Positions 7,635 through 59,257 of a stretch of DNA of 64,000 nucleotides are shown piece after piece; position 1 is the stretch's first letter; each line of letters starts with the position of its first letter. Source of the DNA: Acidobacteriota bacterium (GTDB taxonomy: Bacteria > Acidobacteriota > UBA6911 > RPQK01 > JAJDTT01); the NCBI GenBank assembly GCA_965219855.1, contig CBDCOR010000022.1:835826-899825 (forward strand), written 5' to 3'. A program made the position numbers and the translations under genes. Below the pieces are notes generated by a model. The model saw nothing but the letters and a program-made list of their open reading frames with translations, was not told where the DNA came from and did no database searches.

Positions 7635-8188
7635 ACGCTCTTGCTCCTCTGTTTCTTGATTCTGGCTCTAACGGCTAGACTCTATTATGACGCCTACCCC
7701 TTTTTCCAGTCCGGTCTTGTAGACAGAGCCGAAACAGGCAGTTATAAGGAGTCTCAAATAGGGAGGATGCATGGGTGAATTTTTGATCGTAGGCATGATC
7801 GAACCCACGTACGTTTGATACGCCTGTGCTCCGAGTCCTCGACCGCGAAGTGCTGACGTCTGGGGGATTTGGAACGTTCAGACGTTCAGACAGGCTCCTC
7901 GCCCCGGATTTCCCACCGCCAGGCTACCGTACTGACTGTTTTTTCCCGCTCGACCGAAACAATAGGCACTGCGCGCCTGAATTCTGGAAGACGATCAGAG
8001 AGGGAGCCTGGGCCGACTTGAATCCCATCGCTCTGCAGCCATGGGGCGCGTGGCTATCCCAGGTGACGTGATAGTGGACACAGCGCCTGCAGCTCAGGTG
8101 TTGGGTCTGTGATTGGCGACAGTTAGAATTTCCCACGACGACAAATAGAATTCCCCACTTTTTCAGGGCTGATCCTGACCATGAGGGC

Positions 8189-9661
8189 ATGGTTAAGGAT
8201 CAGCAAGTGCGGAGGTTAGTAAAGTTGCAAAAGAACGAGAAGACGCTAACGATGGCGGCGGCCAAAGCGGGGCTGTCGCGAAAGACGGCTCGGAAGTACC
8301 TGAAGTCGGGAAAGCTGCCGAGCCAGAGTCAGCCGGAGCGATATTGGCGAACTCGATCGGATCCGTTCGAGTCGGTGTGGCCAGAGGTGGAAGAGATCCT
8401 GAAGCGATCTCCGACGGTGGAAGCGACAGCGGTGTTCGAGTATTTGTGCCGCCAGCAGGAAGGGGCCTTCCAGCAAGGTCAGTTGAGGACGCTGCAGCGC
8501 AGGATCAAGCAGTGGAAGGCACAACACGGAGAAGCGAAGGAGGTGATGTTCCCGCAGAAGTATCGGCCGGGACATCAAGCTCAATCGGACTTTACGTTTA
8601 TGGGGCGTCTGGGAGTGACGATCCAGGGCCAGCCGTTTCCCCATCTGCTGTACCACTTTGTTTTGGCCTACTCGAACTGGGAAGCGACCACGCTGTGTTT
8701 CAGTGAGTCCTTTGAGAGCCTCAGCCTGGGGCTTCAGAACGCGTTGTGGGAGTTGGGGGCGCTGCCCGAGGAACACCGAACAGACCGGCTTTCGGCGGCC
8801 GTCAACAACCTGAAACGGGAAGAGTTCACCGAGCGCTATCAAGGGTTGCTGAGACACTTCGGGATGCGCTCGAGTCGCACCCAGGCAGGAAAGGCTCACG
8901 AGAACGGGGATGTGGAACAGGCCCATCACCGCTTGAAACGGGCCATCGAGCAGGAACTGCTGCTGCGGTGTAGCCGTGATTTTTCCAGCCGGGAAGAGTA
9001 CGAGGGTTTTGTAGCGGTGATTGTGGACCGGCGCAATGCGACCCGGCAAAAGCGCCTGGGAGAAGAGCTGGCCGTGATGCGCCCGTTGCCGGCACGCCGT
9101 CTGGATGACTTCACCCGGCAGTGGGTGAGAGTCTCCCCCAGCAGTACGATCCGGGTTCGCCACAACACCTATTCGGTGGACAGCCGGTTGATCGGCGAGC
9201 GGGTGCAGGTGAGGGTGTGGGCGGATCAGGTGGAGGTCTACTACGGGGGTCAGCCACAGGCACGCATGCCTCGCTTGCGAGGAGAAGGCAAGCATCGCAT
9301 TGACTACCGGCAGGTGATCCATTCCCTGGTGCGCAAGCCGGGGGCGTTCACTCGCTATCGCTGGCGCGAGGATCTGTTTCCGGGGATCTTGTTTCGAGTC
9401 GCCTACGACGAGCTGCGCCAAGATTGTCCAGCCACGGCGGATCGCCAGTATCTGAAGATCCTCGAGTTGGCTGCCCAGGAAGGTGAGCAGCGAGTGCGAG
9501 AGGCACTTCAGGGGCTGATTGAGAGGGGACAAAGAATCCGTTTCGAAGCACTACGAGAATGCCTCGTCGATCCGGTGGTGGAGCCCTGGGAAGTGGCGGT
9601 GGAGAAGATGGACGTGGGCGTCTACGACACGCTGCTGGAGAGCCGGGAGGTGAGATCATGA
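8189..9661 (+). CDS. istA: IS21-family transposase IstA.
   Basis: 490 aa with an N-terminal HTH and a DDE integrase core. Its stop overlaps the istB start. Confidence 0.9.
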   Translation: MVKDQQVRRLVKLQKNEKTLTMAAAKAGLSRKTARKYLKSGKLPSQSQPERYWRTRSDPFESVWPEVEEILKRSPTVEATAVFEYLCRQQEGAFQQGQLRTLQRRIKQWKAQHGEAKEVMFPQKYRPGHQAQSDFTFMGRLGVTIQGQPFPHLLYHFVLAYSNWEATTLCFSESFESLSLGLQNALWELGALPEEHRTDRLSAAVNNLKREEFTERYQGLLRHFGMRSSRTQAGKAHENGDVEQAHHRLKRAIEQELLLRCSRDFSSREEYEGFVAVIVDRRNATRQKRLGEELAVMRPLPARRLDDFTRQWVRVSPSSTIRVRHNTYSVDSRLIGERVQVRVWADQVEVYYGGQPQARMPRLRGEGKHRIDYRQVIHSLVRKPGAFTRYRWREDLFPGILFRVAYDELRQDCPATADRQYLKILELAAQEGEQRVREALQGLIERGQRIRFEALRECLVDPVVEPWEVAVEKMDVGVYDTLLESREVRS

Positions 9662-11451: not shown

Positions 11452-11505
11452 TCGTTCAAGTTTCAGCTTAGCCCCGCCACCGGCTGCGCCGGATCGTACC
11501 TGAAA

Positions 11506-11630
11506 GAAACTTCAGTCGAGGGACGTAGCGGTGGGCTCCAGGCCGCCGCCCGAGCCAAAGGCTCGGAAAAATGAGACTTCGGCCTGGAGGCCAAAGCTAC
11601 ATTCGCCAATGAAGTTTCAGGTTAGCTTAG
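11506..11630. repeat. Small palindromic element of family 4, with GAAACTTCA terminal inverted repeats.
   Basis: GAAACTTCAG...CAATGAAGTTTCAG(GTTAGCTTAGG) with an internal stem GCTCCAGGCCG / CGGCCTGGAGGC. A related copy lies at 33066-33296. End fragments lie at 5640 and 11457. Confidence 0.45.
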
Positions 11631-14326: not shown

Positions 14327-14764
14327 TCAGCCTTTTTCCCCGATGGCTTGAGCCGTGAGTCGATTGAACACGTGCGCCCAGACCACCAGGTAGTGTTCGA
14401 TTAGCTGTCTGAGGTAGGGAGCACAGCCCTTCGCGTGAAGAAAGAGGCAATAGCGCTGGTCGCCGTGCTGCTTTTCGAACCAAAGACCCTGATCGTAGCT
14501 GCGACCATCCTCCAGATAGAAGTGGAGTCGGTCGATCAGAAACTCGCTCAGGTTCTGATAGAGAAGAACCTTACACTTCTCCTCCTCGAGGCAGAAGAGC
14601 GCCGCGCCCTCTACTCCCGATAAAGAGACGATCTCACTCAGCCGGAATTCCTGGATTTTCCTTAGATAGACCGGCTGATCGAGGGTCTGGGAGCCGACCG
14701 ATTCCACTGGCCAGACGTCATGGATGTCCGCTTCCAGAAGGGGATTATAAGACCTACTTGACAT
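14327..14764 (-). CDS. Hypothetical cytoplasmic protein.
   Basis: 145 aa with no recognisable motif. It lies in the AT-richer block. Confidence 0.3.
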   Translation of the reverse strand: MSSRSYNPLLEADIHDVWPVESVGSQTLDQPVYLRKIQEFRLSEIVSLSGVEGAALFCLEEEKCKVLLYQNLSEFLIDRLHFYLEDGRSYDQGLWFEKQHGDQRYCLFLHAKGCAPYLRQLIEHYLVVWAHVFNRLTAQAIGEKG

Positions 14765-14795
14765 TTCCTCCCCAATCCTCTATTATGTTCCCATC

Positions 14796-15752
14796 ATGAA
14801 TAAATCGAAAAGACAGAAGATCAGCCTGGTCCAAATCACCGACATGTTCCCCGACGAGCAATCTGCTGAGAGATGGTTTGAGCAAACTCTGTGGTCGAGT
14901 GAACGCTACTGTGGGCGTTGTGGGTCGGACAACACCCATAAGACTCCCAACCGCAAGCCCATGCCCTACCGATGCAGGGATTGCCGCAAATACTTCTCCG
15001 TCAGGACTGGAACACCCATCGCAAAAACCAACCTGCCTCTCAGGAAATGGGTGATTGCTGTTTATCTGGAACTGACCAGCCTCAAAAGCATCGCCTCCAC
15101 CAAACTTGCCAGCGATATCGGAGTCAGCCAACCCGCAGCTTGGTTCATGCTTCACCGCATCCGTCAAGCCTGGACCCGAAGTGGTGGGGATGGCCCGTTC
15201 TCTGGTCCAGTTGAAGTTGACGAAGCCTACTTTGGGGGCAAACGAAGAAACATGAGCAAGTCCAGGCAGAAGGAATTGACTGGCAGAGGACCAGCTGGGA
15301 AGGTGGCCGTGGCCGGTATCAAGGATCGGGCCACCAACAAGGTTCAGGCGGCGGTTGTCCCCGACACCAAGTCTGAAACGATGATCCGCTTCATCATGGA
15401 ACACGCCGACCCCGATGCCAAGATCTACACCGATGACGCCCTGGTCTACCACGTCCTTCCCAACCATGAATCCGTCAAGCACAGCGTTGGTGAGTACGTC
15501 AGGGGCAAAGCCCACACCAACGGGGTCGAGTCCTTCTGGTCGATGCTGAAACGTGCTCATACAGGAACCTTTCATAAAATCAGTCCGAAGCATCTGAATC
15601 GCTACGTCCAGGAGTTCGCGGGTAAGCACAATCTTCGTCAGCTTGACACCCTGGCTCAGATGAAGGCGGTTGTTCGGCGGCTGGCGGGGAAGACCCTGCC
15701 TTACGACATGCTGACTGCCGATAACGGCCTTTCTTCGGGTGCACGGTCATGA
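14796..15752 (+). CDS. IS1595-family (ISXO2-like) transposase.
   Basis: 318 aa. It has an N-terminal zinc ribbon (CGRCGS...CRDCRKYFS) followed by a DDE domain. Element ends were not resolved. Confidence 0.8.
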   Translation: MNKSKRQKISLVQITDMFPDEQSAERWFEQTLWSSERYCGRCGSDNTHKTPNRKPMPYRCRDCRKYFSVRTGTPIAKTNLPLRKWVIAVYLELTSLKSIASTKLASDIGVSQPAAWFMLHRIRQAWTRSGGDGPFSGPVEVDEAYFGGKRRNMSKSRQKELTGRGPAGKVAVAGIKDRATNKVQAAVVPDTKSETMIRFIMEHADPDAKIYTDDALVYHVLPNHESVKHSVGEYVRGKAHTNGVESFWSMLKRAHTGTFHKISPKHLNRYVQEFAGKHNLRQLDTLAQMKAVVRRLAGKTLPYDMLTADNGLSSGARS

Positions 15753-15886
15753 GTGCCCTCACCAAGTCTTCGGGTGTTGCGTCTCCGTAGTCAGGTCGTT
15801 TTCTCATGAATCCTCCATCAATTCCAAGAACCTAGCCATGGTCTTTGACCCCCTTGGATTTGCTCATTTTCTTCTGCCCTTTCAAA

Positions 15887-16567
15887 TTATCCAAGCTCAA
15901 CCTCTATGGCAAGGCCACTCTTTCTGTTGAGAACATCCCGCCTGATCCGATAGCGTATCTCATATTCCGAACCGCTCCCATCCTTGTACTGAATGCAACC
16001 TTTCGCCGCCGCCTTCAAGTCACCGATATCCAGTTGCCAGGAGCGGATTAGCTCGAAGAGGCTGTTACCAAACGGCTTATTGAGCAGAATAATGGATGGT
16101 GGCCAATTTTCAGGATAGAGGAAAAAGGACTCCCCCGGCTCCAAGTAAGTAATCTCCGGCCCCGTGAACTCCACGGCAGCCTCCCCCAATTGCAGAGGTT
16201 CTACAACGACACTGTAGGCTGGGGCATCGCCATTGTTCTTGAAAAAAAGCCCGCTGTAGTGGCGTTCATCCCATCCACTCTCGACCGGGATAACATGTGG
16301 TCTTTTTCCGTTCTCCACACTTCGCAATCTTTTCTTTTTGAAGAATCCGTGGGGAAACCAAGTCTGCCGAATCGCCATAGATAGACAGAAACCGAGCAAG
16401 GCTAGTACAATCTTGAGTTCAAGAGAGAAATTTCCCCACTGCCCCATCAGCCAGGCCACGACACCCCCCACGCTGTCCCACCAGGACAGCTTCTTGATCC
16501 AGGCGAAAACAATCTGCCAAACCGCCCGCCCGGCGAACTGCTTGAGGATTCCAACCAACCACCGCAT
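15887..16567 (-). CDS. Hypothetical protein with an N-terminal TM segment.
   Basis: 226 aa in the AT-richer block. It overlaps the 3' end of the upstream XRE ORF in another frame. The true start may be internal. Confidence 0.3.
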   Translation of the reverse strand: MRWLVGILKQFAGRAVWQIVFAWIKKLSWWDSVGGVVAWLMGQWGNFSLELKIVLALLGFCLSMAIRQTWFPHGFFKKKRLRSVENGKRPHVIPVESGWDERHYSGLFFKNNGDAPAYSVVVEPLQLGEAAVEFTGPEITYLEPGESFFLYPENWPPSIILLNKPFGNSLFELIRSWQLDIGDLKAAAKGCIQYKDGSGSEYEIRYRIRRDVLNRKSGLAIEVELG

Positions 16568-16809
16568 TTGTTCACTTTACGCTCCCCTCCCGTGCTTATC
16601 AAGTAGGGCTGATATTCCCCTTCCAGAACACCCAGCATTCGAAATAAATTGTCGAGGCTGATGTTGTAGAACCCGCTTTCCATACACCCATACGAGCCCG
16701 TTGGAATCCCGGACTGTTGAGCCAGGTCCTTGATCCTAATCCTCTTGCTCTGGCGTAGTTCCCGGAGACGCCGACGAACAAACTCATTGACTCCTCTGGT
16801 CTTACTCAT
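16447..16809 (-). CDS. XRE-family helix-turn-helix transcriptional regulator.
   Basis: MSKTRGVNEFVRRRLRELRQSKRIRIKDLAQQSGIPTGSYGCMESGF is a classic Cro/C1-type HTH. The C-terminal tail is low-complexity, so the true stop is uncertain. Confidence 0.5.
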   Translation of the reverse strand: MSKTRGVNEFVRRRLRELRQSKRIRIKDLAQQSGIPTGSYGCMESGFYNISLDNLFRMLGVLEGEYQPYLISTGGERKVNKCGGWLESSSSSPGGRFGRLFSPGSRSCPGGTAWGVSWPG

Positions 16810-17182
16810 AGCTAACTCCGATGATTGAAAATTACCCAAAGCACCGTAATATCACCTCTTTGGACAAGTATCCAACGGTACCTGAGGACTCCCTTCCCAT
16901 TTCCCTGAGATACGACTAAGACTACGACAAGCATGGGTGGTATGTAAAGTCGGAACGTCTGAGTGTCGCAGTTCGCAGGTTGCTGAGGAAAGGCATCTAT
17001 TGATGCAGGAGGAAAACACAGCCGCGCACGGGGCCGCATGTCAGCAACATCAGACCCAGTTCCGCGGAGTAAGCGGGACTGAAGTTTTCACCGGAATGAT
17101 CCAGCGTGACCGGTTGCCGTACTGATCGGAAGGATCACCGACTCGTGATCCATGGGGTTAGCCCGCATTTCTCATCGCTAGT

Positions 17183-19051
17183 CCCAAAATAAGCGCAAGT
17201 TCGAAAATAGACCCCTTTGTCGGCTCCGAGGAGCCATTTTGGAGACCTAAATTCTAAATTTCGGCGCGAAGTCACTCAGAACAGGCACGTGTTCAGCTGT
17301 CCTCCACGCCGATCGCTCAGGGAAAACGATTCTGCCCTCTTGGGGGGCGTTTGTAGAGACACCTCGCCCCAGCTCTGGCGACCCTCGGAGCTACTTTATC
17401 TCCTTTCAGTTTCAGGTAGCTGGCCGGTGTTTCAACCACTTACTGCCTTCCAAGAGAAGACGGCTCCAACCATTGACATCCAGCAGCCGATAGACCAACT
17501 GTCGGCCCCTGCGCAAAATCTGGCAGGGCATTTCAATGACCTCTCGCAGGAAACGGCGATACTCCATCTTCACCAGCTCTCGGGCTTGCAGTCGCGCCGG
17601 CAGCACCAACCCCATCCAGGCCTTCAGATTCCAGGCTTGAGCCGCAATCACCAGATAGGCCCAGTTGGCTACCAGCGTATCCGAGGGCATCCGCAGGGCC
17701 TCGACTCCGTTCTTGAGTTGTTCAATGACGTTCTCCTGGTTGCAGCGCCGGTTGTTTTCCCGTACGACTCCCGCCGTTCCCAACGTTCTGGCCGAGATAT
17801 TGGTGACATAAAAGTGGTAGCGCGTCTGCGGCAGCAGCCGCTTCTGGCCTTTCTCGACCAGGATCGTCTTGCGCAAGATCACCATCCGATAGGTTCGCTT
17901 CGCTTTGCTCGGACGGTAGTCGATCTCCGCGATCTCTTCCCGTTCCAGCGTCAGCGTCTTGAACCCGCGTCTCTTGATAATCTCCGGCTTCACTTTGTCC
18001 CGCCGCTGGCGCCGCTTCTTCCCTTTTCCTTTCCCCTGGCTGGGGCGCCCCAGCTCTTTCCATCTCGCTTCTGGCAACGCCTCCGCCCACTTGACGAAGC
18101 TCGGATGGGCGTCGATCCCGAAGTCAAACTCCACGCCCGCCTCCGTCCAACGGTCAAAATGAGCCGTCAGCGAAAAATCCGTGTCCCCGCGCAGGCGCAC
18201 CTTCCGAAAACCCGCCTCTCGAACCAGCTCGATACTCCGATCCAGCCATTCGGCCGCTCCCTCATGAGAGGGACGGTTGCCCGAGCGGTTGACCGCATAG
18301 AGCACCTCTCCCGTATTGGCCAGCGTCACGATCAGCGGCGCATAGCCCCACTGCCCGTCGTAGCTGATCTCCATCCCTTCCTTGCATTCGCCGCTCGTGG
18401 GGGCCATCGTCCCATCCACGTCGATCTCCGCCCGTTGGAAGAAACGGGCCGGTTGTTGGGCCCAGACCTTGAGGCGGCTGGCATTGACGGCTTCCATCAG
18501 ATCCACCACGTCGGGCGCGTCAAAGCGGCGCACAAAGTCTCCGGCCGTGCTGGGGGCGGGGATCTTCTCGGCTCCCACCGCCTCCAGGAAACTCACACTC
18601 TGACGTCGCAGTTCAATATCCTGATAGCGGGTCCCGCCCGTGGCCACGTTGTAGATCAGGCTCAGGACGTGGTCCGATTCGTGGTACGGTTGGTGGCGTT
18701 TGAGCAGCGTCACCGCCTGGTCAATGGCTTTCCCCAGCCCACTCCACTTCACCACCTGCTGCAGCAGCCCCAGACCACCGTAACTGACCGCACCCGTTTT
18801 CTCCGAGACCTCGTAGCTGATGACCTCGGGCGAGAGCACCGGTTTCGGGTCTTGACCGTTCCAGCTGGGGCTCAATCGCTGAGCAACCTCTGCTTCCCGT
18901 TTGCGGATGATTGCGCTATCCTTTTTCTTCACCTGAAATGCCTCCTTTCGGCTTGTTCTGAAGTTTCTTTGACAACCCCAGAATACCCGTCAGGTCTGGC
19001 ATTTCAGGTGTTTACATGTGGTTTAGTCCACTTTCATCTACTTCTTTTGGG
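17183..19051 (-). mobile_element. IS1380-family insertion sequence, copy A, intact.
   Basis: Terminal inverted repeats are CCCAAAATAAG (left) and the reverse complement of CTTCTTTTGGG (right). The 6-bp direct repeat GCTAGT flanks both ends. The element is 1869 bp and is inserted inside a MITE. Confidence 0.85.
17412..18932 (-). CDS. IS1380-family DDE transposase.
   Basis: 506 aa. The conserved blocks YDGQWGY, RSGNRPSHEGAAEW and LRGDTDFS match IS1380/ISEcp1-type transposases. Confidence 0.85.
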   Translation of the reverse strand: MKKKDSAIIRKREAEVAQRLSPSWNGQDPKPVLSPEVISYEVSEKTGAVSYGGLGLLQQVVKWSGLGKAIDQAVTLLKRHQPYHESDHVLSLIYNVATGGTRYQDIELRRQSVSFLEAVGAEKIPAPSTAGDFVRRFDAPDVVDLMEAVNASRLKVWAQQPARFFQRAEIDVDGTMAPTSGECKEGMEISYDGQWGYAPLIVTLANTGEVLYAVNRSGNRPSHEGAAEWLDRSIELVREAGFRKVRLRGDTDFSLTAHFDRWTEAGVEFDFGIDAHPSFVKWAEALPEARWKELGRPSQGKGKGKKRRQRRDKVKPEIIKRRGFKTLTLEREEIAEIDYRPSKAKRTYRMVILRKTILVEKGQKRLLPQTRYHFYVTNISARTLGTAGVVRENNRRCNQENVIEQLKNGVEALRMPSDTLVANWAYLVIAAQAWNLKAWMGLVLPARLQARELVKMEYRRFLREVIEMPCQILRRGRQLVYRLLDVNGWSRLLLEGSKWLKHRPAT

Positions 19052-19211
19052 GCTAGTCTACTGCGTCGCCGCAATCACCCGCCCTGGCTGCGTTACGCTC
19101 GGTCAGCCTCCTCGACGTACTGTCAAAGTACGACTGCGGCGGCCTCGGTCGCAAGCCTTGCCAGGACGGCGCTTGCGACGCCTCGCTACGACGAGCGATG
19201 AGAAATGCGGG

Positions 19212-20546
19212 TTAGGTCAGGCGGGAGAACCCACTTTCCGCTATCGGTCCCCGCAAGCGATTTTCTGCGTCTCCCTTTTCGATCGCTTCGGCTAGTTCAG
19301 CGAAGGTCGAGTCGAGTGCTTCCAGATACTGATCCAGGACTTTATCGGTGTGAGCATAGGAGGCGCAAAAGGACTCTGTTGCCAGGAATCCCCGGTTCAA
19401 CATGTGTTGGGTTAGGAGCGTGCCAAGGGCCTTTGCCTGAGTTCCATAGTTCAGGGAAAAGCTGCACATGGGATGCTGTCCGTGGACACCGACCGCCAAA
19501 CCGTGTTTCTTAGTGAGTAGTCGCCAGCCCTCCTGGACCTTGCCGCCGATTCGATCGATATGCGCAGAGAGCCCAATCTTTTTCATTTTCTTGAGGGTGG
19601 CCAAGGCGGCCGTCGGTCCAATGGCGTCGGTCCAGGTGGTGCTGCTTATGAAGGAGACCTCGGCGGCGCTCATGACCTCTCTTCTGCCGATGATGGCGGC
19701 CATCGGGTAGCCGTTGGAGATCGACTTGGAAAAGACCGCGATGTCTGGATCCATGCCCAGTTTCAGGTGGACGCCTCCCAGACAGAATCGCCAGCCCGCG
19801 CTGACCTCGTCGAAAACCAGTACGGCGCCGATGGAATCCGCGATTTCCCGGACTCGCTCCAGGAAGTTGTTCTCGGGCCAATCGCGCCGCATGGGCTCCA
19901 TCACGATGCCTGCCAGATCCGAGCCGTGTTGGGCCACCAGCTCCTCTAACTCTTCTAGATGGTTGTAGCGGAAGGGCAGCGCTGTACCCTGAAGGCCTCG
20001 GGGGACGCCTCTGGGTTCGAGCCCTGGCATCAAGTGCCCGTCGAGGGCACTGTCGCTGGCCAGATTCGCCGCCAGATACCAATCGCTCCAGCCGTGGTAG
20101 CCGCAGAACGCGATCTTGTCACGCCCAGTGAAGGCGCGGGCGATCCGGGCTGCAATCGACATCGACTCGCCACCGGCTCGAGCATAGCGCACGCTGTCGG
20201 CCCAGGGATGCAGCTGGCATAGGAGATCCGCCAGCTCAACCTCTGCCGGGGAGTTCAAGGAGCTCATGTTCCCCTTGTCGACGGCCTCCTTGACCGCGCT
20301 GTTGACATCGTCATCGGCAAAGCCCAGAAGACTGTTTCCGACAGAGTGAATGCTTACATCTATGAGCCGACGGCCGTCCAGATCCCAGACCTCGCAGCCC
20401 TTTGCTCGGCTGTAATAGGAAGGCCACAGCTTGGGCAAGAATCTCTCGGGACGCTTGCTTAATCCGAAGTTACCCTGAAAACTAGCTGAAAAACAACCTG
20501 TAAGCCATTGTGGATCATCAGGTAAGGGTCTTTTTGTGTTCGACAA
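19212..20546 (-). pseudogene. Class-III PLP-dependent aminotransferase (GSA-aminomutase-like). Its 5' end is interrupted by IS1634 copy 1.
   Basis: The core domain is intact (...LYxxAKxxIPGG-like, GNSLLGF, VFDEV). The current ORF start at 20546 lies inside the IS left end. The original first ~32 codons (MDYSKVDWKRSSGAELYRHAKTKIPGGTQL) are on the far side of the IS at 22426-22520. The stop codon sits in the TTAG flank of the MITE. Confidence 0.7.
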
Positions 20547-22425
20547 TCTGTACCCATGTAATAGTTGCTTTAGTGTCCTTTATTGTCGGTAGTATGTGAT
20601 ATTATAGTGCCCATGTACATCGAATCCGTTCCCAACCGCAACTCGCCCCCGGCCATTCTCCTGCGCGAGTCCTACCGGCAAGCCGGCAAGGTGCGCAAGC
20701 GCACTCTGGCTAACCTCAGCAAGTGGCCCGCGGAGATCGTCGAAGGCCTGCGCAGCCTCTTGAAGGGAGGCTCCGTCATCTCCGACTTGAGCCAAGCCTT
20801 CCAGGTCCAGCGCACTCGCCCCCATGGTCATGTGGCGGCCGTCTTGGGTACCCTGCGCCGCCTCGGTTTGGAGCGCTTACTGGCCACTCGCAACAGCCTG
20901 CAGCGCCGCCTGGTAGTGGCCCTGATCGTGGCGCGCATCCTGGAGCCCCGCTCCAAGCTGGCCACCGCACGCGGATGGGATCCCCAGACCCTGTCCAGCA
21001 GCTTGGGCGAGCTCTTACAGGTGGAGGCCGCGACGGCCGATGATCTGTACGGCGCCTTGGACTGGCTGCTCGTTCGACAACCAAAGATTGAAAACCAGCT
21101 GGCGGCTCAGCGCCTGCAGGACGGTTGCCTCGTGATCTACGACGTCACCTCGACCTACTTCGAAGGGAGGAGTTGCCCGTTGGCCCAGCGGGGGTATTCC
21201 CGAGACGGCAAAGGGGGTACGCTGCAGATCGTCTTCGGCCTGCTGTGCGACCGTCAAGGCTGCCCTGTCGCGGTCGAGGTCTTCGAAGGCAACCGAGCGG
21301 ACCCCACAACAGTGACCAGCCAAATCCAAAAACTGCGCCAACGCTTCGGGTTGCGCTCGGTGGTGGTGGTCGCCGATCGAGGAATGCTGACGGAAGCCCG
21401 CATTCGGGAGGAGCTCAAGCCGCTGCCCGGCATGGGCTGGATCACGGCCCTGCGAGGCCCTCAGATCCGCAAACTGTTTCAATCCGGTCCGCTGCAGCTG
21501 TCCCTGTTTGATCAACGCGACCTGGCCGAGATCCAGAGCCCGGACTACCCCGGGGAACGGCTCATTGTCTGCCGTAATCCCCTCTTAGCGGAGGAACGGG
21601 CCCGCAATCGCCAGCAACTGCTCCAGGCGACCGAGCTGGAGTTGGAGAAGATTGTCCAGGCAACGCAACGTCCGAAGCGTCGCTTCAAGGGCAAGGATCG
21701 GATTGCCCTGCGGGTGGGCAAAGTCCTCAACCGCTACAAAGTGGGCAAGCATTTTGTCCTGGAGATCGGCGAGGAGTCCTTCTCCTACCAGCGCCGGCAG
21801 GAGCGCATCGAGCAGGAGGCGGCACTGGACGGGATCTATGTGATTCGCACCAACCTGGCCCGCGAGCAAATGGATGCCGAACAAACGGTGGCTGCCTACA
21901 AGGGGTTGTCCGTCGCCGAACGGGCCTTCCGCAGCTGTAAGAGTGTCGATCTGAAGGTCCGACCCATTTACCACCATCTGGAGGATCGGGTCCGCGCTCA
22001 CGTCTTTCTGTGCATGCTTGCCTACTACGTCGAGTGGCACATGCGACAGAAGTTAGCTCCGATCCTGTTCGACGACGAGGATCCCGAGGCGGGGAGGCAG
22101 CTTCGCGATTCGGTGGTGGCACCCTCTCAGCGCTCTCCTCAGGCCCTCCGCAAGGCTCACCGCAAGCGCACCGTTGAGGGTGGGCCCGTGCACAGCTTTC
22201 AGACCTTGCTCAGCGATTTGGCCACGATCTCCAAAAACCGGATTCAGCCGCAGTTGCCCGGCTCAGCAGCCTTCGACAAAATCACCCGTCCCACATCGCT
22301 TCAGCAGCGAGCCCTGGATCTCCTCGGCGTTCGTCTATAATGTACCCAGTACCGACGCAGCTGATTTGTAGCATTACCCCAATCTTAACAATAGGTTACA
22401 TCACTTTTCTACGAGGTAACTTAGG
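20465..22425 (+). mobile_element. IS1634-family insertion sequence, copy 1, intact.
   Basis: Imperfect terminal inverted repeats are CCGAAGTTACCCTG and the reverse complement of CGAGGTAACTTAGG. A 6-bp direct repeat CTTAAT flanks both ends. 1961 bp. Confidence 0.85.
20583..22340 (+). CDS. IS1634-family (IS4-like) DDE transposase.
   Basis: 585 aa. The N-terminus MYIESVPNRNSPPAILLRESYRQAGKVRKRTLANLSKW is typical of IS1634 transposases. Confidence 0.85.
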   Translation: MSVVCDIIVPMYIESVPNRNSPPAILLRESYRQAGKVRKRTLANLSKWPAEIVEGLRSLLKGGSVISDLSQAFQVQRTRPHGHVAAVLGTLRRLGLERLLATRNSLQRRLVVALIVARILEPRSKLATARGWDPQTLSSSLGELLQVEAATADDLYGALDWLLVRQPKIENQLAAQRLQDGCLVIYDVTSTYFEGRSCPLAQRGYSRDGKGGTLQIVFGLLCDRQGCPVAVEVFEGNRADPTTVTSQIQKLRQRFGLRSVVVVADRGMLTEARIREELKPLPGMGWITALRGPQIRKLFQSGPLQLSLFDQRDLAEIQSPDYPGERLIVCRNPLLAEERARNRQQLLQATELELEKIVQATQRPKRRFKGKDRIALRVGKVLNRYKVGKHFVLEIGEESFSYQRRQERIEQEAALDGIYVIRTNLAREQMDAEQTVAAYKGLSVAERAFRSCKSVDLKVRPIYHHLEDRVRAHVFLCMLAYYVEWHMRQKLAPILFDDEDPEAGRQLRDSVVAPSQRSPQALRKAHRKRTVEGGPVHSFQTLLSDLATISKNRIQPQLPGSAAFDKITRPTSLQQRALDLLGVRL

Positions 22426-22616: not shown

Positions 22617-24404
22617 GTGACCGAGATCCGCAAGCTTTTTCCCTATCTCCGACCGTATTTCCCAATCCTTGTCCTGGCGCTGATCCTGCTCATTCTCACC
22701 GGTGCTCTCGAGATTGTTCCTGTCACGCTGCTTTCTCCTATCCTAAATCAGTGGTCCAGTGACGGCGCACAGGCGGGCGCCGCCGCTGAGGGCAAGTTCG
22801 GCTTTCTCCACGATTGGTTGGGTCTCCAAGAGAATCCGCTTTCGCGGATTGCCTACGTCCTGGTGGGATTTGCGTTTCTTAAGGGACTCTTTCTCTACTG
22901 TGCGGAGTATGCCATGGGGTATACCGGCCACAGAGTGGTGGCCGCGCTTAGGAATGACCTCTACGGGCATCTCCTGGAGCAATCGCTTGCCTTCTTTGCT
23001 CGCAATACCAGTGGAAGGCTGATGGTTCGCGTGGTTAGCGACACCGAACGGCTTCAGATCGCAGTAAGCAGGATCTTGACGGATTTTCTTCGGCAGATTT
23101 TCCTGTTTCTCTTCTTCCTTGGGCTAGTAATGTACACCGATTGGAGGCTGGCTCTCCTGTCTTTTCTCGTCGCACCCCTGGTACTGTCCATCATTTTGAA
23201 CCTGGGCCGAAAGATCCGTACCGCCAGTCGTTGGAGTCAGGAGCACCTGGAGGAAATAAGTCACGCCTTGCAGGAGACGATTGCGGGAAACCAGATCGTT
23301 AAGGCGTTCACCATGGAGGATTACGAGAAGAGACGCTTTCGGAAACTCAACCAGGATTTGGTCCGAGTCAACTTGAAGGCGGCGCGCATCGGTGCCCTGA
23401 ATTCGCCTTTGATCGAGTTCATCGGCTACGTCTCCTTTTTCCCCTTCCTTCTCTACGCGCACCATCAGATGAACCAGGGTCTCACGATTGGTGTTTTCGC
23501 GGTCTTTCTGGTCTCTCTATTCCGGCTCTATGAACCCATCAGAAAGCTGTCCCGGATGCATCTGCACTTCCAACATTCCTCGGCCTCCGCCGGCCGAATT
23601 TTCGATCTCCTGGCAACCCGCATGGAGATCCCAGATCTACCCGAGGCACGGACGCTAACGCCCTTAAGCCGAGAGATCGCATTCGAAGGGGTTTGCTTCA
23701 GCTACGAAGAGGGTGGGGACAGTGCCATCCTGCAGGACTTGGATCTCTCGATAGGGCGGGGGGAGATCGTCGCCCTGGTGGGTCCAAGTGGCGCCGGAAA
23801 GTCGAGCATGGCAAGCCTGATCCCCAGGTTCTTCGACGTTACCTCGGGCTGCATCACGATTGATGGTGTCGACATTCGTGAGGTTCGACTGGAGTCTCTG
23901 CGAGATCAGATCGCAATCGTGACTCAAGACACCTTCCTGTTCAACGACTCGGTAGCGAACAACATCGGCTATGGCAGGGAAGATTGCTCCTCGGATGAGA
24001 TCGAAGAGGCGGCTAAAGCTGCCTTCATCCACGATGTAATCAAGGCCCTTCCGAGCGGTTATGACACCGTTATCGGAGACCGAGGGCAACAGCTCTCAGG
24101 TGGGCAACGTCAGCGAATCGCCATCGCTAGGGCGATTCTCAAGCAGGCCCCCATACTGATCTTGGATGAGGCCACCTCGGCTCTGGACACGGAATCCGAG
24201 CAGTTGGTTCAAAATGCCCTCCACAATCTGATGGAGAATCGCACCACCCTCGTCATAGCGCACCGGCTGTCAACGGTGCGAAAGGCGGATCGGATCGTCT
24301 TGCTCGACGCCGGACGAATCATCGACGTCGGCGATCACCAAGGCCTTCTGAACCGTTCTCTACTCTACCAGCGGTTGTCTGACGCGCAGTCGGAGGCGAG
24401 TTAA
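22617..24404 (+). CDS. ABC transporter, fused permease/ATPase, MsbA-like lipid or multidrug exporter.
   Basis: 595 aa with six N-terminal TM helices. Walker A GPSGAGKSS, ABC signature LSGGQRQR and Walker B ILILDEATSALD. Confidence 0.85.
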   Translation: MTEIRKLFPYLRPYFPILVLALILLILTGALEIVPVTLLSPILNQWSSDGAQAGAAAEGKFGFLHDWLGLQENPLSRIAYVLVGFAFLKGLFLYCAEYAMGYTGHRVVAALRNDLYGHLLEQSLAFFARNTSGRLMVRVVSDTERLQIAVSRILTDFLRQIFLFLFFLGLVMYTDWRLALLSFLVAPLVLSIILNLGRKIRTASRWSQEHLEEISHALQETIAGNQIVKAFTMEDYEKRRFRKLNQDLVRVNLKAARIGALNSPLIEFIGYVSFFPFLLYAHHQMNQGLTIGVFAVFLVSLFRLYEPIRKLSRMHLHFQHSSASAGRIFDLLATRMEIPDLPEARTLTPLSREIAFEGVCFSYEEGGDSAILQDLDLSIGRGEIVALVGPSGAGKSSMASLIPRFFDVTSGCITIDGVDIREVRLESLRDQIAIVTQDTFLFNDSVANNIGYGREDCSSDEIEEAAKAAFIHDVIKALPSGYDTVIGDRGQQLSGGQRQRIAIARAILKQAPILILDEATSALDTESEQLVQNALHNLMENRTTLVIAHRLSTVRKADRIVLLDAGRIIDVGDHQGLLNRSLLYQRLSDAQSEAS

Positions 24405-24406
24405 AT

Positions 24407-24567
24407 AAGAGGTCGCACGTCGGAACGTCTGAACGTCGCACGTCCCAAGTCCCAAGTCCCTCAGACTTCCGGTGAACTCTTCAGGCTGGCAGCTATCACG
24501 GGGGCTCAGCAAACCGAAACCCAGCCTGGGACGTGCGACGTGCAGACGTTCCGACGTGCGACTCTTT
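24407..24567. repeat. REP-like palindromic element, full length.
   Basis: The ~40-nt arms are AAGAGGTCGCACGTCGGAACGTCTGAACGTCGCACGTCCCA and its inverted partner. It lies in the convergent gap between the ABC transporter gene and fabI. Confidence 0.6.
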
Positions 24568-25399
24568 AATCTGCCTCCGGTTCCCCGTATAACGCCTCCA
24601 GGACCGAATCGCTGATGCCTACGGAACTGAACCCACCGTCGTGATAGATGTTCTGCATGGTTACTTTGCGGCATAAGTCGGAAAGCAAGGCTACTACAAA
24701 GTCGGCGCAATCGCCGGCTTGCGCGTTTCCCAGGGGGGACATCTTGTCGGCGATATCATAGAGCTGATCGAAGCCTTTGATTCCTCCGCCTGCAGTTGTC
24801 TTGGTGGGGCTCTGTGAGACGGTGTTGATGCGGATGCCTTTTTGTCCCAGGTGGTAGCCCAGACTACGAGTAACGCTCTCGAGCAGGGCTTTGGCGTCTG
24901 CCATGTCGGAGTAGCGGGAAAAGACTCTCTGCGCACCGATGTAGGTGAGCGCCGCAATACTTCCCCCTTCGTTGAGGGCGTCGGCCTTCAAGGCCTGGCT
25001 TACGATTCGGTGTAGAGAGAGTGCTGATACGTCTAGGGTCTTGTGGAACCAGTCGTAGTTGAGATCATCGTAGGATCTCAACTTTCGTACGTTAGGTGAC
25101 ATGCCAATCGAGTGGACGATAAAATCCACCTTGCCCAAGCTTTGCTTCAATTGCTCGAAAGCAGCCTCGACATCCTGGCTGGAGCTGGCGTCACAGGGAA
25201 TCAAGGGAGCGTCGTCACAAAGCTTTGCTAGCTCCTGCACTCTTCCCAGGCGAAAAGCGACCTTCACATTTGAAATGGCCAGGCGGGCTCCTTCTCTGTG
25301 ACAGGCGAGTGCGGTGTGCCATCCCAGGCTGTGCTCGTTCAACGGTCCGAAAACGATTCCCTTCTTATCTCTCAGCAGACCATAGCTTCTTTGCTCCAT
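24566..25399 (-). CDS. fabI: Enoyl-ACP reductase FabI (NADH).
   Basis: The start is taken at MEQRSYGLLRDKKGIVFG. The SDR-like fold carries the FabI-type YxxxxxxK region (YIGAQRVFSRYSDMADAKALLES). Confidence 0.75.
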   Translation of the reverse strand: MEQRSYGLLRDKKGIVFGPLNEHSLGWHTALACHREGARLAISNVKVAFRLGRVQELAKLCDDAPLIPCDASSSQDVEAAFEQLKQSLGKVDFIVHSIGMSPNVRKLRSYDDLNYDWFHKTLDVSALSLHRIVSQALKADALNEGGSIAALTYIGAQRVFSRYSDMADAKALLESVTRSLGYHLGQKGIRINTVSQSPTKTTAGGGIKGFDQLYDIADKMSPLGNAQAGDCADFVVALLSDLCRKVTMQNIYHDGGFSSVGISDSVLEALYGEPEAD

Positions 25400-26755: not shown

Positions 26756-27301
26756 ATGTCGATCTGGAAGTTGCTGGGCTTAGAAGGCAAGGGACCGATT
26801 GGGAAGGGCAGTAACGATGCGGGGGAGGACGCCGAAACCATCCGCAAGATTACACATGCCCTGGAGGAATTGCCCTCGGATCAAGCCCGGTTCCTAGCGG
26901 TCTTCGCCTTCATCCTGAGTCGCGTAGCCCACGCGGATCTCGAGATCAGCGAGGACGAGACCAGGGAAATGGAAAGGATCGTCAAAGAGATGGGATCGGT
27001 CCCCGAGGCACAGGCAGTTCTAGTAGTTCAGATCGCCAAGACCCAGAGCCTCCTCTTCGGAGGAACCGAGAACTTTCTGGTAACGAGAGAGTTCAACAAG
27101 ATTGCAACCCGTGAAGACAAACTCAAGCTGCTGGAATGTCTCTTCGCCGTCTCCTCTTCAGAAGAAGGTATCTCCAGCGCCGAGGACACCGAGATCCGTC
27201 AAATCAGCCGCGAGCTTCTTCTGGAACACAGCGACTTCATCGCCGTCCGGTCCGTGTATCGGGAGCATTTGAACGTCTTGAAGAAGAGGTCGCACGTCTG
27301 A
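26756..27301 (+). CDS. TerB-family (tellurite-resistance TerB-like) protein.
   Basis: Two acidic helical repeats (EISEDETREMERIV, ISSAEDTEIRQISREL). The last four codons are encoded by the REP-like repeat. Confidence 0.65.
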   Translation: MSIWKLLGLEGKGPIGKGSNDAGEDAETIRKITHALEELPSDQARFLAVFAFILSRVAHADLEISEDETREMERIVKEMGSVPEAQAVLVVQIAKTQSLLFGGTENFLVTREFNKIATREDKLKLLECLFAVSSSEEGISSAEDTEIRQISRELLLEHSDFIAVRSVYREHLNVLKKRSHV

Positions 27302-27430
27302 ACGTCTGAACGTCGCACGTCCCAGATCCCCCAGACGTCAGCTGGACTTGTCAGGCTGGCAGGTATCACGGGGCTCAGCAAACCGGACCCCAGCTTGGGT
27401 CGTGCGACGTTCAGACGTGCGACCTCTTTT
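27284..27430. repeat. REP-like palindromic element whose right arm is one GAACGTC unit shorter.
   Basis: AAGAGGTCGCACGTCTGAACGTCTGAACGTCGCACGTCCCA ... TGGGTCGTGCGACGTTCAGACGTGCGACCTCTT. Confidence 0.6.
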
Positions 27431-27618: not shown

Positions 27619-29486
27619 CCCAAAATAAGCGCAAGTTCGAAAATAGACCCCTTTGTCGGCTCCGAGGAGCCATTTTGGAGACCTAAATTCTAAATTTCGG
27701 CGCGAAGTCACTCAGAACAGGCACGTGTTCAGCTGTCCTCCACGCCGATCGCTCAGGGAAAACGATTCTGCCCTCTTGGGGGGCGTTTGTAGAGACACCT
27801 CGCCCCAGCTCTGGCGACCCTCGGAGCTACTTTATCTCCTTTCAGTTTCAGGTAGCTGGCCGGTGTTTCAACCACTTACTGCCTTCCAAGAGAAGACGGC
27901 TCCAACCATTGACATCCAGCAGCCGATAGACCAACTGTCGGCCCCTGCGCAAAATCTGGCAGGGCATTTCAATGACCTCTCGCAGGAAACGGCGATACTC
28001 CATCTTCACCAGCTCTCGGGCTTGCAGTCGCGCCGGCAGCACCAACCCCATCCAGGCCTTCAGATTCCAGGCTTGAGCCGCAATCACCAGATAGGCCCAG
28101 TTGGCTACCAGCGTATCCGAGGGCATCCGCAGGGCCTCGACTCCGTTCTTGAGTTGTTCAATGACGTTCTCCTGGTTGCAGCGCCGGTTGTTTTCCCGTA
28201 CGACTCCCGCCGTTCCCAACGTTCTGGCCGAGATATTGGTGACATAAAAGTGGTAGCGCGTCTGCGGCAGCAGCCGCTTCTGGCCTTTCTCGACCAGGAT
28301 CGTCTTGCGCAAGATCACCATCCGATAGGTTCGCTTCGCTTTGCTCGGACGGTAGTCGATCTCCGCAATCTCTTCCCGTTCCAGCGTCAGCGTCTTGAAC
28401 CCGCGTCTCTTGACAATCTCCGGCTTCACTTTGTCCCGCCGCTGGCGCCGCTTCTTCCCTTTTCCTTTCCCCTGGCTGGGGCCCCCAGCTCTTTCCATCT
28501 CGCTTCTGGCAACGCCTCCGCCCACTTGACGAAGCTCGGATGGGCGTCGATCCCGAAGTCAAACTCCACGCCCGCCTCCGTCCAACGGTCAAAATGAGCC
28601 GTCAGCGAAAAATCCGTGTCCCCGCGCAGGCGCACCTTCCGAAAACCCGCCTCTCGAACCAGCTCGATACTCCGATCCAGCCATTCGGCCGCTCCCTCAT
28701 GAGAGGGACGGTTGCCCGAGCGGTTGACCGCATAGAGCACCTCTCCCGTATTGGCCAGCGTCACGATCAGCGGCGCATAGCCCCACTGCCCGTCGTAGCT
28801 GATCTCCATCCCTTCCTTGCATTCGCCGCTCGTGGGGGCCATCGTCCCATCCACGTCGATCTCCGCCCGTTGGAAGAAACGGGCCGGTTGTTGGGCCCAG
28901 ACCTTGAGGCGGCTGGCATTGACGGCTTCCATCAGATCCACCACGTCGGGCGCGTCAAAGCGGCGCACAAAGTCTCCGGCCGTGCTGGGGGCGGGGATCT
29001 TCTCGGCTCCCACCGCCTCCAGGAAACTCACACTCTGACGTCGCAGTTCAATATCCTGATAGCGGGTCCCGCCCGTGGCCACGTTGTAGATCAGGCTCAG
29101 GACGTGGTCCGATTCGTGGTACGGTTGGTGGCGTTTGAGCAGCGTCACCGCCTGGTCAATGGCTTTCCCCAGCCCACTCCACTTCACCACCTGCTGCAGC
29201 AGCCCCAGACCACCGTAACTGACCGCACCCGTTTTCTCCGAGACCTCGTAGCTGATGACCTCGGGCGAGAGCACCGGTTTCGGGTCTTGACCGTTCCAGC
29301 TGGGGCTCAATCGCTGAGCAACCTCTGCTTCCCGTTTGCGGATGATTGCGCTATCCTTTTTCTTCACCTGAAATGCCTCCTTTCGGCTTGTTCTGAAGTT
29401 TCTTTGACAACCCCAGAATACCCGTCAGGTCTGGCATTTCAGGTGTTTACATGTGGTTTAGTCCACTTTCATCTACTTCTTTTGGG
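27619..29486 (-). mobile_element. IS1380-family insertion sequence, copy B, about 99% identical to copy A.
   Basis: The terminal inverted repeats are the same as in copy A. The 6-bp direct repeat ACTAGA flanks both ends. 1868 bp, that is 1 nt shorter than copy A. Confidence 0.85.
27848..29367 (-). pseudogene. IS1380-family transposase disrupted by a 1-nt deletion (frameshift).
   Basis: Two overlapping ORFs (28426-29367 and 27848-28525) together cover the 506-aa protein of copy A. Copy A reads CTGGCTGGGGCGCCCCAG where copy B reads CTGGCTGGGGCCCCCAG. One Ile/Val substitution is also present. Confidence 0.8.
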
Positions 29487-32991: not shown

Positions 32992-33065
32992 CCCGGATTT
33001 TTCGTCGCCCGTCGTAGCGAGGCAACGAAAAGCCTTTTTCACAAGGCGCTCGATCATTCAGGGGG

Positions 33066-36315: not shown

Positions 36316-36324
36316 GTTATGATT

Positions 36325-55537: not shown

Positions 55538-55558
55538 ATCACTTTCTGGTTGGAACCA

Positions 55559-57178: not shown

Positions 57179-57353
57179 CCCGGATTATTCATAAGTTTTC
57201 GTAGCGAGGCGGCGAAAGCGCCGTCCTGGCAAGGCTTGCGACCGAGGCCTCCGCAGTCGTACTCGTGCAGTCCGTCGAGGAGGCCGACCGAGCGTAACAC
57301 AGCCAGGCCGGATGATTGCGCCGCCGCAGTAGAAAACTTATGAATAATCCGGG
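57179..57353. repeat. MITE family 1 variant with the same core but different terminal inverted repeats.
   Basis: Perfect 22-nt terminal inverted repeat CCCGGATTATTCATAAGTTTTC, flanked by CTAG direct repeats at 57175-78 and 57354-57. The core is GTAGCGAGGCGGCGAAAGCGCCGTCCTGGCAAGGCTTGCGACCGAG..., shared with the 59069 copy. Confidence 0.6.
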
Positions 57354-57366
57354 CTAGACTAGCTGC

Positions 57367-59068: not shown

Positions 59069-59257
59069 CCCGCATTTCTCATCGCTTGTCGTAGCGAGGC
59101 GCCGCAAGGGCCGTCCCGGCAAGGCTTGCGACCGAGACCACTCGTGGCTAGCCGCCGCAGTCGTACTTGTACAGTACGTCGAGGAGGCCGACCGAGCATA
59201 ACACAGCCAGGGCGGATGATTTCGGCGTCGCAGTAGACCAGCGATGAGAAATGCGGG
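59069..59257. repeat. MITE family 1, intact 189-bp copy.
   Basis: Terminal inverted repeats CCCGCATTTCTCATCGCT / AGCGATGAGAAATGCGGG, flanked by TTAG at 59065-68 and 59258-61. The TTAG at 59258-61 supplies the TAA stop of the DUF1501 gene. Confidence 0.65.

Follow-up and report, generated by a model that had tools for sequence, protein, structure and literature searches.

When one mobile element lies inside another at the very end of a gene, in which order did the two arrive, and did both of them arrive at that spot? This question is raised by a locus in a 64,000-nucleotide stretch of contig CBDCOR010000022.1 from an Acidobacteriota bacterium (GCA_965219855.1), referred to below in its full length as the window. 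A previous sequence-only reading of the window placed an IS1380-family element inside a MITE, which was itself placed on a stop codon, that of a class-III aminotransferase gene. The dating of nested transposons is classical in plant genomes, and the bacterial cases are of the IS-in-IS and IS-in-REP kinds. The inner element is necessarily younger than the outer one in all such cases, and the nest described here, a small bacterial example, does not differ from them in principle. The nested insertion is real and well documented, and it is an ordinary trace of one transposition following another in a genome that is IS-rich and Acidobacteriota-like.

Anatomy of the nested insertion

The features of the locus and the related copies in the window are given in Table 1. 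The copy of the IS1380-family element within the nest (copy A) is bounded by GCTAGT on both sides, exactly where its limits had been drawn, and the MITE is bounded by TTAG on both sides, also as previously read. The two MITE::IS junctions are CATCGCTAGT/CCCAAAA and TTTTGGG/GCTAGTCTAC, the slash marking the border. By removing 17183-19051 together with one GCTAGT, the 21 nt at 17162-17182 and the 154 nt at 19058-19211 are joined into a 175-bp sequence that is 92.6% identical to the MITE family consensus without gaps. The IS thus splits a member of this family, and its placement inside a MITE was borne out. The excised 175-mer also aligned end to end with the intact copy at 59069-59257, as had been predicted (162/175 aligned columns identical, E = 5e-65, Plus/Minus), with one 14-bp gap. 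Some details of the sequence-only reading need correction: the two copies are in opposite orientation and not collinear, the interrupted MITE belongs to the 175-bp size class, without the 14-bp segment, and is not 189 bp long, and its left fragment is 21 nt, or 25 nt with TTAG, instead of 24 nt.

Table 1. Coordinates in the window of the nested elements, the aminotransferase gene and the related copies.
Feature	Position	Strand	Remarks
MITE duplication, left copy, TTAG (CTAA on the gene strand)	17158..17161	.	The L169 and L167 empty sites hold a single tetranucleotide
Interrupted MITE, left fragment, 21 nt	17162..17182	-	Carries terminal inverted repeat CCCGCATTTCTCATCGCT
IS duplication, left copy, GCTAGT	17177-17182		Last 6 nt of the MITE left fragment
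IS1380-family IS, copy A, 1869 bp	17183..19051	-	Ends CCCAAAATAAGCG... and ...CTTCTTTTGGG
Transposase gene of copy A, 506 aa, intact	17412..18932	-	NF033539, PF13701; identical protein encoded in L001
IS duplication, right copy, GCTAGT, 6 bp	19052..19057	.	MITE sequence
Interrupted MITE, right fragment, 154 nt	19058..19211	-	Terminates in inverted repeat ...AGCGATGAGAAATGCGGG
MITE duplication, right copy, TTAG	19212..19215	.	19212-19214 is the TAA stop of the minus-strand aminotransferase
Class-III aminotransferase (glutamate-1-semialdehyde aminomutase-like), about codon 30 to stop	19212..20463	-	PF00202, E = 1.7e-37
IS1634-family element, copy 1, in the aminotransferase gene	20464..22425	+	CTTAAT duplication; NF033559, 341 bits
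IS1380-family IS, copy B	27619..29486	-	ACTAGA/ACTAGA; 99.8% identical to copy A
Truncated MITE end, 32 nt	32992..33023	+	Adjoins another small repeat
Intact MITE, 175 bp	57179..57353	+	CTAG/CTAG; sub-family with co-varying inverted repeats (CCCGGATTATTCATAAGTTTTC)
Intact MITE, 189 bp	59069..59257	+	TTAG/TTAG; right TTAG holds the stop of a minus-strand DUF1501 gene (59258-60736)

The aminotransferase gene and its empty site

The minus-strand aminotransferase ORF ends in ...ACC TAA, and its TAA is supplied by the right-hand TTAG, in agreement with the sequence-only reading. The location of the MITE on the stop codon was further confirmed in two related loci, L169 and L167, which hold one CTAA and one CTGA at this site, respectively, and no insert. 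DNA identity of the gene in L169 is 99.6% (443/446 for the protein), and the sequence there runs uninterrupted as CCGCCTGAC-CTAA-CCCCATGGATCACGAG (...CTGAC CTAA CCCC...), with neither MITE nor IS. This single CTAA is a direct empty site, and the MITE is a presence/absence polymorphism. That the MITE lies on the stop codon results from its YTAR target and is nothing special in itself. An exact-match metagenome scan with the 3' end of the aminotransferase gene, aimed at all occupancy states, gave 0 hits.

An IS1634-family element that the sequence-only reading had missed cuts off the 5' end of the same gene at about codon 30. At the insertion point, L167, L168 and L169 all carry a single hexamer and no such element, and excision of 20464-22425 with one CTTAAT restores a 446-aa ORF identical to P0130 in 443/446 positions. 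The 444-aa aminotransferase ORF present in the window starts inside the IS1634-family element. The aminotransferase ORF is a pseudogene, split by this element, of which an ORF caller would report only the truncated protein; annotators should be warned of this. A 408-aa cluster member in a close relative (P0132) is identical to the 3' part of the aminotransferase in 406/408 positions.

Order of events

The MITE preceded the IS because the IS is nested in it. The divergence of the copies also supports this order, which had been put forward from the sequence: the IS copies are 99.8-99.95% identical (copy A to copy B and to the copy in L001, respectively), whereas pairwise identity among the MITE copies is about 80-94%. 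The best explanation of the locus is very probably two successive transposition events at one spot, the MITE first and the IS second. In the first step, a 175-bp non-autonomous MITE would have inserted at the CTAA containing the TAA stop of the aminotransferase gene and duplicated it, and because of this duplication neither the stop codon nor the protein sequence of the gene would have changed. For the second step, this MITE copy or its source copy would have borne a substitution changing the consensus ACCAGC into ACTAGC and thereby creating a CTAG. An active IS1380-family element would then have entered the CTAG, duplicated all 6 bp and cut the MITE into its 21-nt and 154-nt parts.

The nest itself establishes the order; it does not prove that both events took place at the aminotransferase locus, as a composite could have arrived there as one unit. 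According to this alternative, which we consider improbable, the IS inserted into a MITE copy at another place in the genome, and the resulting 2,050-bp MITE::IS composite was subsequently moved by the MITE transposase onto the stop-codon CTAA. The 2,050-bp unit as a whole indeed has intact MITE inverted repeats at its ends and a perfect TTAG duplication around it. Moreover, the site is wholly empty in the strain with the 99.6%-identical gene, so the arrival of the MITE was recent, like that of the IS. No intermediate state with the MITE present and the IS absent was found at the aminotransferase locus, and it is therefore a rate argument that has to carry the in-situ order. By this argument, the odds for insertion in situ would be roughly 20 to 1, since two separate insertions would have had the whole time since the strains split at their disposal (about 1-3% flank divergence), whereas the time for a composite to form and move was limited to the age of the IS copies, which is far shorter (at most 0.2% difference). 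A composite is also disfavoured by the finding that 0 of the 12 other IS copies examined lie in a MITE, and no second composite is known. We infer that the MITE and the IS both inserted in situ and did not arrive as a pre-formed composite.

The IS1380-family element and its target

Copy A harbours one 506-aa ORF, and the inverted repeat at its ends, CCCAAAATAAGCG and CCCAAAAGAAGTA (reverse complement), is perfect over the first 7 bp. The transposase matched the IS1380-family model NF033539 with 288.4 bits (cutoff 180, model positions 7-416 of 419) and PF13701 with 103.9 bits (E = 8e-30, cutoff 34.7). In copy B, the transposase is frameshifted after about residue 295 by a 1-bp deletion. Members of the IS1380 family in ISfinder have a single ORF, a length of about 1.55-2.0 kb, terminal inverted repeats starting with CC and 4-5-bp duplications, and ISEcp1 reportedly uses AT-rich 5-bp target sites. 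The element described here resembles the family (IS1380, ISEcp1, ISPme1) by its single DDE transposase encoded in one ORF within 1.87 kb, by inverted repeats that begin with CC and by short flanking direct repeats, but it differs in duplicating 6 bp with a strict CTAG core. The 6-bp duplication is a variation in stagger length that is atypical for the IS1380 family and does not outweigh the transposase match. No link between IS1380 and CTAG was found in the literature searched.

The duplicated hexamer is GCTAGT at copy A and in L001, and ACTAGA at copy B, where both flanks agreed with the previous reading. Among the 13 copies of this IS and its 92.6%-identical isoform, 9 have perfect 6-bp NCTAGN duplications with outer bases varying among copies; the isoform accounts for perfect hexamers at 6 of its 10 sites, also with varying outer bases. 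A CTAG core was furthermore present in 87 of 100 flanks from 50 metagenomic relatives, to which the IS protein is only 48-59% identical. The proposed targeting of a CTAG-containing hexamer is upheld by these counts. The hexamers were non-identical at 4/10 isoform sites and in most metagenome relatives, which we tentatively attribute to chimeric assembly or to recombination among copies; at two of these isoform sites, a flank is shared with another locus. Models with a 4-bp CTAG and variable terminal bases, or with a 5-bp CTAGN and an extra terminal base, were both rejected for the copy-A IS, because the outer bases differ between near-identical copies and yet match across the copy in 9/13. The 5-bp CTAGN model seems to fit better in distant relatives with 'CCT...AGG' ends.

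The IS might also be thought to recognise the MITE specifically, by its hairpin or its sequence, making the MITE copies preferred landing pads. The MITE is an extended hairpin, and a 189-bp copy in L021 holds two group II intron reverse-transcriptase ORFs. Such a preference is nevertheless very unlikely, given that no MITE surrounds any of the 12 other copies of the IS or its isoform and that NCTAGN is the only feature common to all IS sites. The family consensus reads ACCAGC at the insertion point, without a CTAG, which the interrupted MITE owes to a point substitution, and any CTAG at all was found in only 2 of 50 copies of 175 bp among the matches listed.

A family of hairpin MITEs

The interrupted element belongs to a true MITE family, with terminal inverted repeats of 18-21 bp and a size of 175 or 189 bp, too short for a transposase gene. 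At least 85 DNA stretches match the family, mostly from Acidobacteriota MAGs, several of which are represented. The family end pattern was, among the matches listed, detected 94 times in 86 loci and the window, where end-paired copies comprised 49 of 175 bp and 12 of 189 bp. Perfect 4-bp duplications flanked 57 of the 75 full copies among the matches listed, and 55 of these 57 were YTAR (CTAG 22, TTAG 18, TTAA 8 and CTAA 7). Within the window, the end pattern occurs 4 times against 0 expected in shuffles; a chance origin is excluded. The MITE consensus is predicted to fold as one hairpin (-101 kcal/mol, z = -7.6), and the terminal arms co-vary between sub-families. No Rfam match was obtained for the MITE, either at the gathering threshold for the whole window or at E ≤ 1 for 57100-59400, and nothing relevant describing a MITE of Acidobacteria was found in the literature searched. 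Among the matches listed, 31% of the MITEs abut the stop codon of an ORF 100 or more codons long, which is modestly above the 18% expected from YTAR sites (p about 0.01).

Hardly tenable is the view that the 175/189-bp repeat is no transposon but a REP-like or structured-RNA element, and the nest merely an IS in an intergenic repeat, for although the strong predicted hairpin, the co-varying terminal arms, the share of copies abutting a stop codon among the matches listed and the failure to find an autonomous partner would suit it, it is already largely refuted by the perfect, nearly always YTAR direct repeats of 57/75 copies among the matches listed and by the orthologous site in L169 and L167, with exactly one tetranucleotide and no repeat, and it gains nothing from Rfam or from a stop-codon association only modestly above the YTAR expectation.

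As a true MITE, the element resembles the hairpin MITEs found at gene ends, such as the Correia elements of Neisseria, RUP and ERIC, in being small, palindromic over its full length, intergenic and located directly after stop codons, and in the internal block by which its size variants of 175 and 189 bp differ. Its sequence family, host phylum and target rule set it apart from these.

The parent of the MITE

A parent was searched for by a regex for the inverted repeats only, by pairs of YTAR-CC...GG-YTAR 0.6-3 kb apart and among the neighbours of L167-L169. The only finds were pairs of adjacent MITEs, a 2.4-kb element in L085 that is unrelated, and the group II introns in L021. In the window and in about 0.7 Mb of Acidobacteriota loci, the search detected neither an autonomous element carrying the inverted repeats of the MITE nor any IS that has CCCGSATTTCTCATCGC as its inverted repeat. 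The ISAzo13-family transposase at 33336-34574, beside the truncated MITE end, was rejected as a parent for want of a matching second end. A transposase common to the MITE and the IS was likewise rejected, as their ends differ beyond CCC and their duplications are 4 bp and 6 bp.

IS5 has ends of the GG/GA type, unlike the present MITEs, which start with CC. These ends, and the lack of an IS with the same inverted repeat, mean that the parent family is indicated by the target rule only. By that rule, the MITE probably owes its movement to an IS5-group-like or IS701-like DDE transposase that acts in trans and has a 4-bp YTAR target. IS5 generates a 4-bp duplication at YTAR (PMC5009759), and the IS701 family is known for a conserved duplication of exactly 4 bp (PMC2266710). 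The MITEs share with such elements and their derivatives the YTAR 4-bp duplication, the inverted repeats, the non-coding nature and the many copies.

Significance of the locus

The nest leaves the understanding of transposition unchanged. Its value is that of a clean worked example in which the order of events is read from nested mobile elements: as both duplications are intact, each event can be reversed in silico, and the steps can be checked against the empty site of the sister strain. For the annotation of Acidobacteriota genomes, two items are reusable in addition to the warning about the pseudogene, namely a multi-copy MITE family of two size classes, with known ends (CCCGSATTTCTCATCGC...) and 4-bp YTAR duplications, and an IS1380-family lineage with NCTAGN integration and a 6-bp duplication.

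A wider reading, rather unlikely when taken as a whole, is that the MITEs form an undescribed, YTAR-targeting hairpin family in several Acidobacteriota species that is still active, and that the IS1380 sub-clade is the first in its family with a strict CTAG-centred 6-bp duplication. Continued activity of the MITE is suggested by its absence from the locus in the strain with the 99.6%-identical gene. As its target contains TAA or TAG, the MITE would be deposited directly after stop codons. If this reading is true, the predicted MITE hairpin of roughly -100 kcal/mol could terminate transcripts or stabilise their 3' ends, and might be retained on that account.

The nested insertion

Excision of the IS1380-family element (copy A) together with one GCTAGT left a sequence that aligned over its full length with the intact MITE at 59069-59257 (162 of 175 positions identical, a single 14-bp gap, E = 5e-65), and the nesting of the IS within the MITE proposed by the sequence-only reading was thereby borne out. 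The alignment was Plus/Minus, so that the two MITE copies are mutually inverted and not collinear as had been stated, and the interrupted copy measured 175 bp after excision instead of 189 bp. Once orientation and size are corrected, the features first noticed are confirmed and the evidence supports their interpretation. The layout, read directly from positions 16900-19500 and 58900-59450, runs ggggTTAG-CCCGCATTTCTCATCGCTAGT, then the IS from CCCAAAATAAGCG to CTTCTTTTGGG, then GCTAGT-CTACTGCG...AGCGATGAGAAATGCGGG-TTAGgtcagg, with the expected TTAG on both sides of the MITE. The IS ends are CCCAAAATAAGCG and, as reverse complement, CCCAAAAGAAGTA. In copy B, whose flanks agree with the earlier claim, a 1-bp deletion shifts the transposase frame after about residue 295. 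A third copy, 99.95% identical, was located in an unrelated context on the metagenome contig L001, flanked by GCTAGT/GCTAGT.

Features of the window
Feature	Position	Details
tRNA	1051-1123	minus strand
Mu-transposase C-terminal domain protein	8189-9661
IS1595-family transposase	14796-15752	within 14740-16615
Interrupted MITE	17162-19211
IS1380-family copy A	17183-19051	flanks GCTAGT/GCTAGT
Copy A transposase ORF	17412-18932	minus strand; 506 aa; NF033539 (IS1380-family transposase), 288 bits, cutoff 180; PF13701
Aminotransferase stop	19212-19214	minus strand
IS1634-family copy 1	20464-22425	NF033559, 341 bits; duplication CTTAAT; near codon 30 of aminotransferase
IS1380-family copy B	27619-29486	99.8% identical to copy A (window self-comparison); flanks ACTAGA/ACTAGA
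Truncated MITE end	32992-33023	32 nt
ISAzo13-type DDE transposase	33336-34574	PF07592, E = 4e-130
IS1634-family copy 2	36445-38401	99.4% identical to copy 1; flanks GCTAAG/ATTAAC
Inverted pair, ~335 bp	38770-39101, 40410-40744	73% identical, 1.3 kb apart
Group II intron domains D1-D4	41411-41555	Rfam RF02003, 71 bits, gathering score 49
Inverted pair, ~270 bp	55558-55830, 63786-64000	90% identical
Third full MITE	57179-57353	175 bp; flanks CTAG/CTAG
Intact MITE	59069-59257	at stop codon of DUF1501 gene
Second small repeat family	24401-24571, 27278-27418, 36321-36369, 5674-5706, 7852-7891
Third hairpin repeat family, ~88 bp	1195-1283, 11525-11607, 33081-33168; also 11470-11521, 41817-41868

Empty sites and the aminotransferase gene

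The search for empty sites that had been suggested was made by aminotransferase homology followed by cluster listing, and led to the protein P0130, identical to the restored window protein at 443 of 446 residues. Its contig, L169, reads ...GGGTTCTCCCGCCTGAC-CTAA-CCCCATGGATCACGAGTCGGTGATCC..., so that the flanks of the 2,058-bp block of the window are contiguous with one CTAA between them; the DNA is 99.6% identical across the gene, and on the other side of the block the flank reaches 98%. The more distant L167 (93% amino acid identity) was also empty, with CTGA at the place. These empty sites are direct evidence of an insertion, of the MITE by itself or with the IS inside it, that duplicated 4 bp, and the single CTAA in L169 shows that the TAA stop pre-existed and hence that the MITE left the protein unchanged. 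Its arrival is later than the split of two strains with approximately 1-3% flank divergence.

The apparent 444-aa aminotransferase ORF starts within IS1634-family copy 1, whose excision gave a 446-aa ORF starting MDYSKVDWKR. This element is absent from L167, L168 and L169, which have a single hexamer at the site, and the aminotransferase is therefore a recent pseudogene. The gene is bracketed by three mobile elements. The mismatched flanks of IS1634-family copy 2 suggest recombination between the two copies.

A 1.9-kb insertion at 14740-16615, absent from L169 and L167, also carries a 226-aa ORF without Pfam match and interrupts the counterpart of an HTH_3 gene. In L168, a metagenome contig 97-99.5% identical to the window, window position 19637 is joined to 32525 at 4916/4918, and the middle of the aminotransferase meets sequence which in the window lies 13 kb off in the other orientation; close strains thus differ here by the breakpoint of a rearrangement or inversion. 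An Acidobacteriota MAG matched the window at 89% identity across 1.3 kb.

The MITE family

One genome per species was scanned with the terminal repeat and the conserved sub-terminal block CCCGNATTNNTCNTNNNNNNTCGTAGCGAGGC. At least 85 DNA stretches matched, mostly from several Acidobacteriota MAGs, with a few among the matches listed from MAGs labelled Bdellovibrionales or Deltaproteobacteria. In the window the end pattern of the MITE was found four times, against none expected in shuffled sequence. Among the matches listed, hits paired with an inverted partner had modal lengths of 175 bp (n = 49) and 189 bp (n = 12), and 57 of 75 full copies had perfect 4-bp direct repeats, 55 of them YTAR (CTAG 22, TTAG 18, TTAA 8, CTAA 7), while most imperfect pairs differed by one transition. 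The inverted repeats co-vary by sub-family, e.g. CCCGCATTTCTCATCGCT versus CCCGGATTATTCATAAGT. The reconstructed copy was 92.6% identical to the family consensus without gaps, and the consensus is predicted to fold into one long hairpin (-101 kcal/mol, z = -7.6). The MITE had no match in Rfam. Given its copies, duplications, two sizes, inverted repeats and hairpin, the small element is a MITE. The family shares the 4-bp YTAR duplication with IS5 (PMC5009759), and the 4-bp length with the IS701 family, in which a duplication of exactly 4 bp is conserved (PMC2266710). Neither the window nor approximately 0.7 Mb of loci yielded an element that combines these ends with a transposase, and thus only the target rule points to a parent.

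Target sites of the IS

A direct repeat alone fits either a 6-bp duplication or a shorter one with variable terminal bases, and more independent sites were therefore gathered. Of 10 sites of an isoform that shares the ends of the IS (92.6% nucleotide identity), 6 had perfect hexamers: ACTAGG, ACTAGT (twice), TCTAGG, GCTAGT and CCTAGG. Among the four imperfect sites, two have one flank in common with another locus, which points to possible recombination between copies or chimeric assembly. Since the outer bases vary between copies yet match across the copy in 9 of 13, the duplication is 6 bp, NCTAGN, in line with the CTAG-containing hexamer first proposed as the target. The IS1380 family is given in ISfinder with duplications of 4-5 bp, and the 6-bp, CTAG-centred duplication is a slightly unusual, minor variation.

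All 50 metagenome relatives (48-59% identity) were flanked by N-YTAR-N, with CTAG as the core of 87 of the 100 flanks. Relatives ending in CCC...GGG often had perfect hexamers. Among the metagenome relatives L087-L166, in those ending in CCT...AGG the bases match only at CTAG and the next base, and an extra A usually precedes the right-hand CTAG; a 5-bp CTAGN duplication may fit this sub-clade better, versus 6 bp in the CCC...GGG sub-clade.

Stop codon and order of insertion

Any YTAR tetranucleotide includes TAA or TAG on one of the two strands. The stop of an ORF 100 codons or longer lay at 31% (23/75) of the sites occupied by MITE copies among the matches listed, against 18% of all YTAR sites in the fetched loci (p ~0.01), and the stop-codon position thus follows largely from the target rule and the tolerance of insertions that break no gene. 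Where the IS inserted, the family most often has ACCAGC, and the interrupted copy has ACTAGC; any CTAG was present in just 2 of 50 175-bp copies among the matches listed, and none of 12 other IS copies examined lay inside a MITE. The IS thus chose a CTAG made by point substitution, not the MITE as such.

Because the MITE is interrupted by the IS and each of the two duplications is complete, the nest was built in the order first claimed, MITE before IS. The IS copies are 99.8-99.95% identical, versus approximately 80-94% for the MITE copies among themselves. Both insertions may have occurred in situ, the MITE onto the CTAA of the stop codon and the IS later into the CTAG of the MITE. No MITE-only allele was found at the locus, and a 2,050-bp MITE::IS composite could instead have formed elsewhere and been moved whole by the transposase of the MITE. 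On that route both steps must fall within the brief age of the IS copies, whereas insertion in situ could take its first step at any time after the two strains separated; with uniform rates assumed, we infer that two insertions in situ are by far the more probable.

Other repeats

At least six IS families occur in the window. The second small repeat family looks like another MITE, and GTCGCACGTC and GAACGTCTGAACGTC motifs abound in its inverted ends. The ~88-bp hairpin repeats often have CTGAAACTTCA-like motifs at their borders, and one adjoins the truncated MITE end. The ~270-bp repeat also occurs in Acidobacteriota MAG loci L068, L072 and L086 (83-92% identity). In L021 (3362-7595) a 189-bp member of the MITE family, flanked by TTAG/TTAG, is interrupted at position 134/136 by 4,046 bp of inserted sequence. 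Two ORFs for reverse transcriptase (PF00078) lie in this insert, and it appears to consist of group II introns that entered the hairpin of the MITE. In L085 (3895-6320) a 2,426-bp element, bordered by CTAG at each end and with perfect inverted repeats of 20 bp (CCCTGCCCTTTACCCGTAAT), directly adjoins a MITE copy; its 720-aa protein has a DruA-like domain (PF14236) and Tn5-type DNA-binding and DDE domains. DruA-domain ORFs lie near transposases in L169 and L174 too.

Biologically, the locus is an ordinary nested insertion, and both of its mobile elements are new and belong to known kinds.
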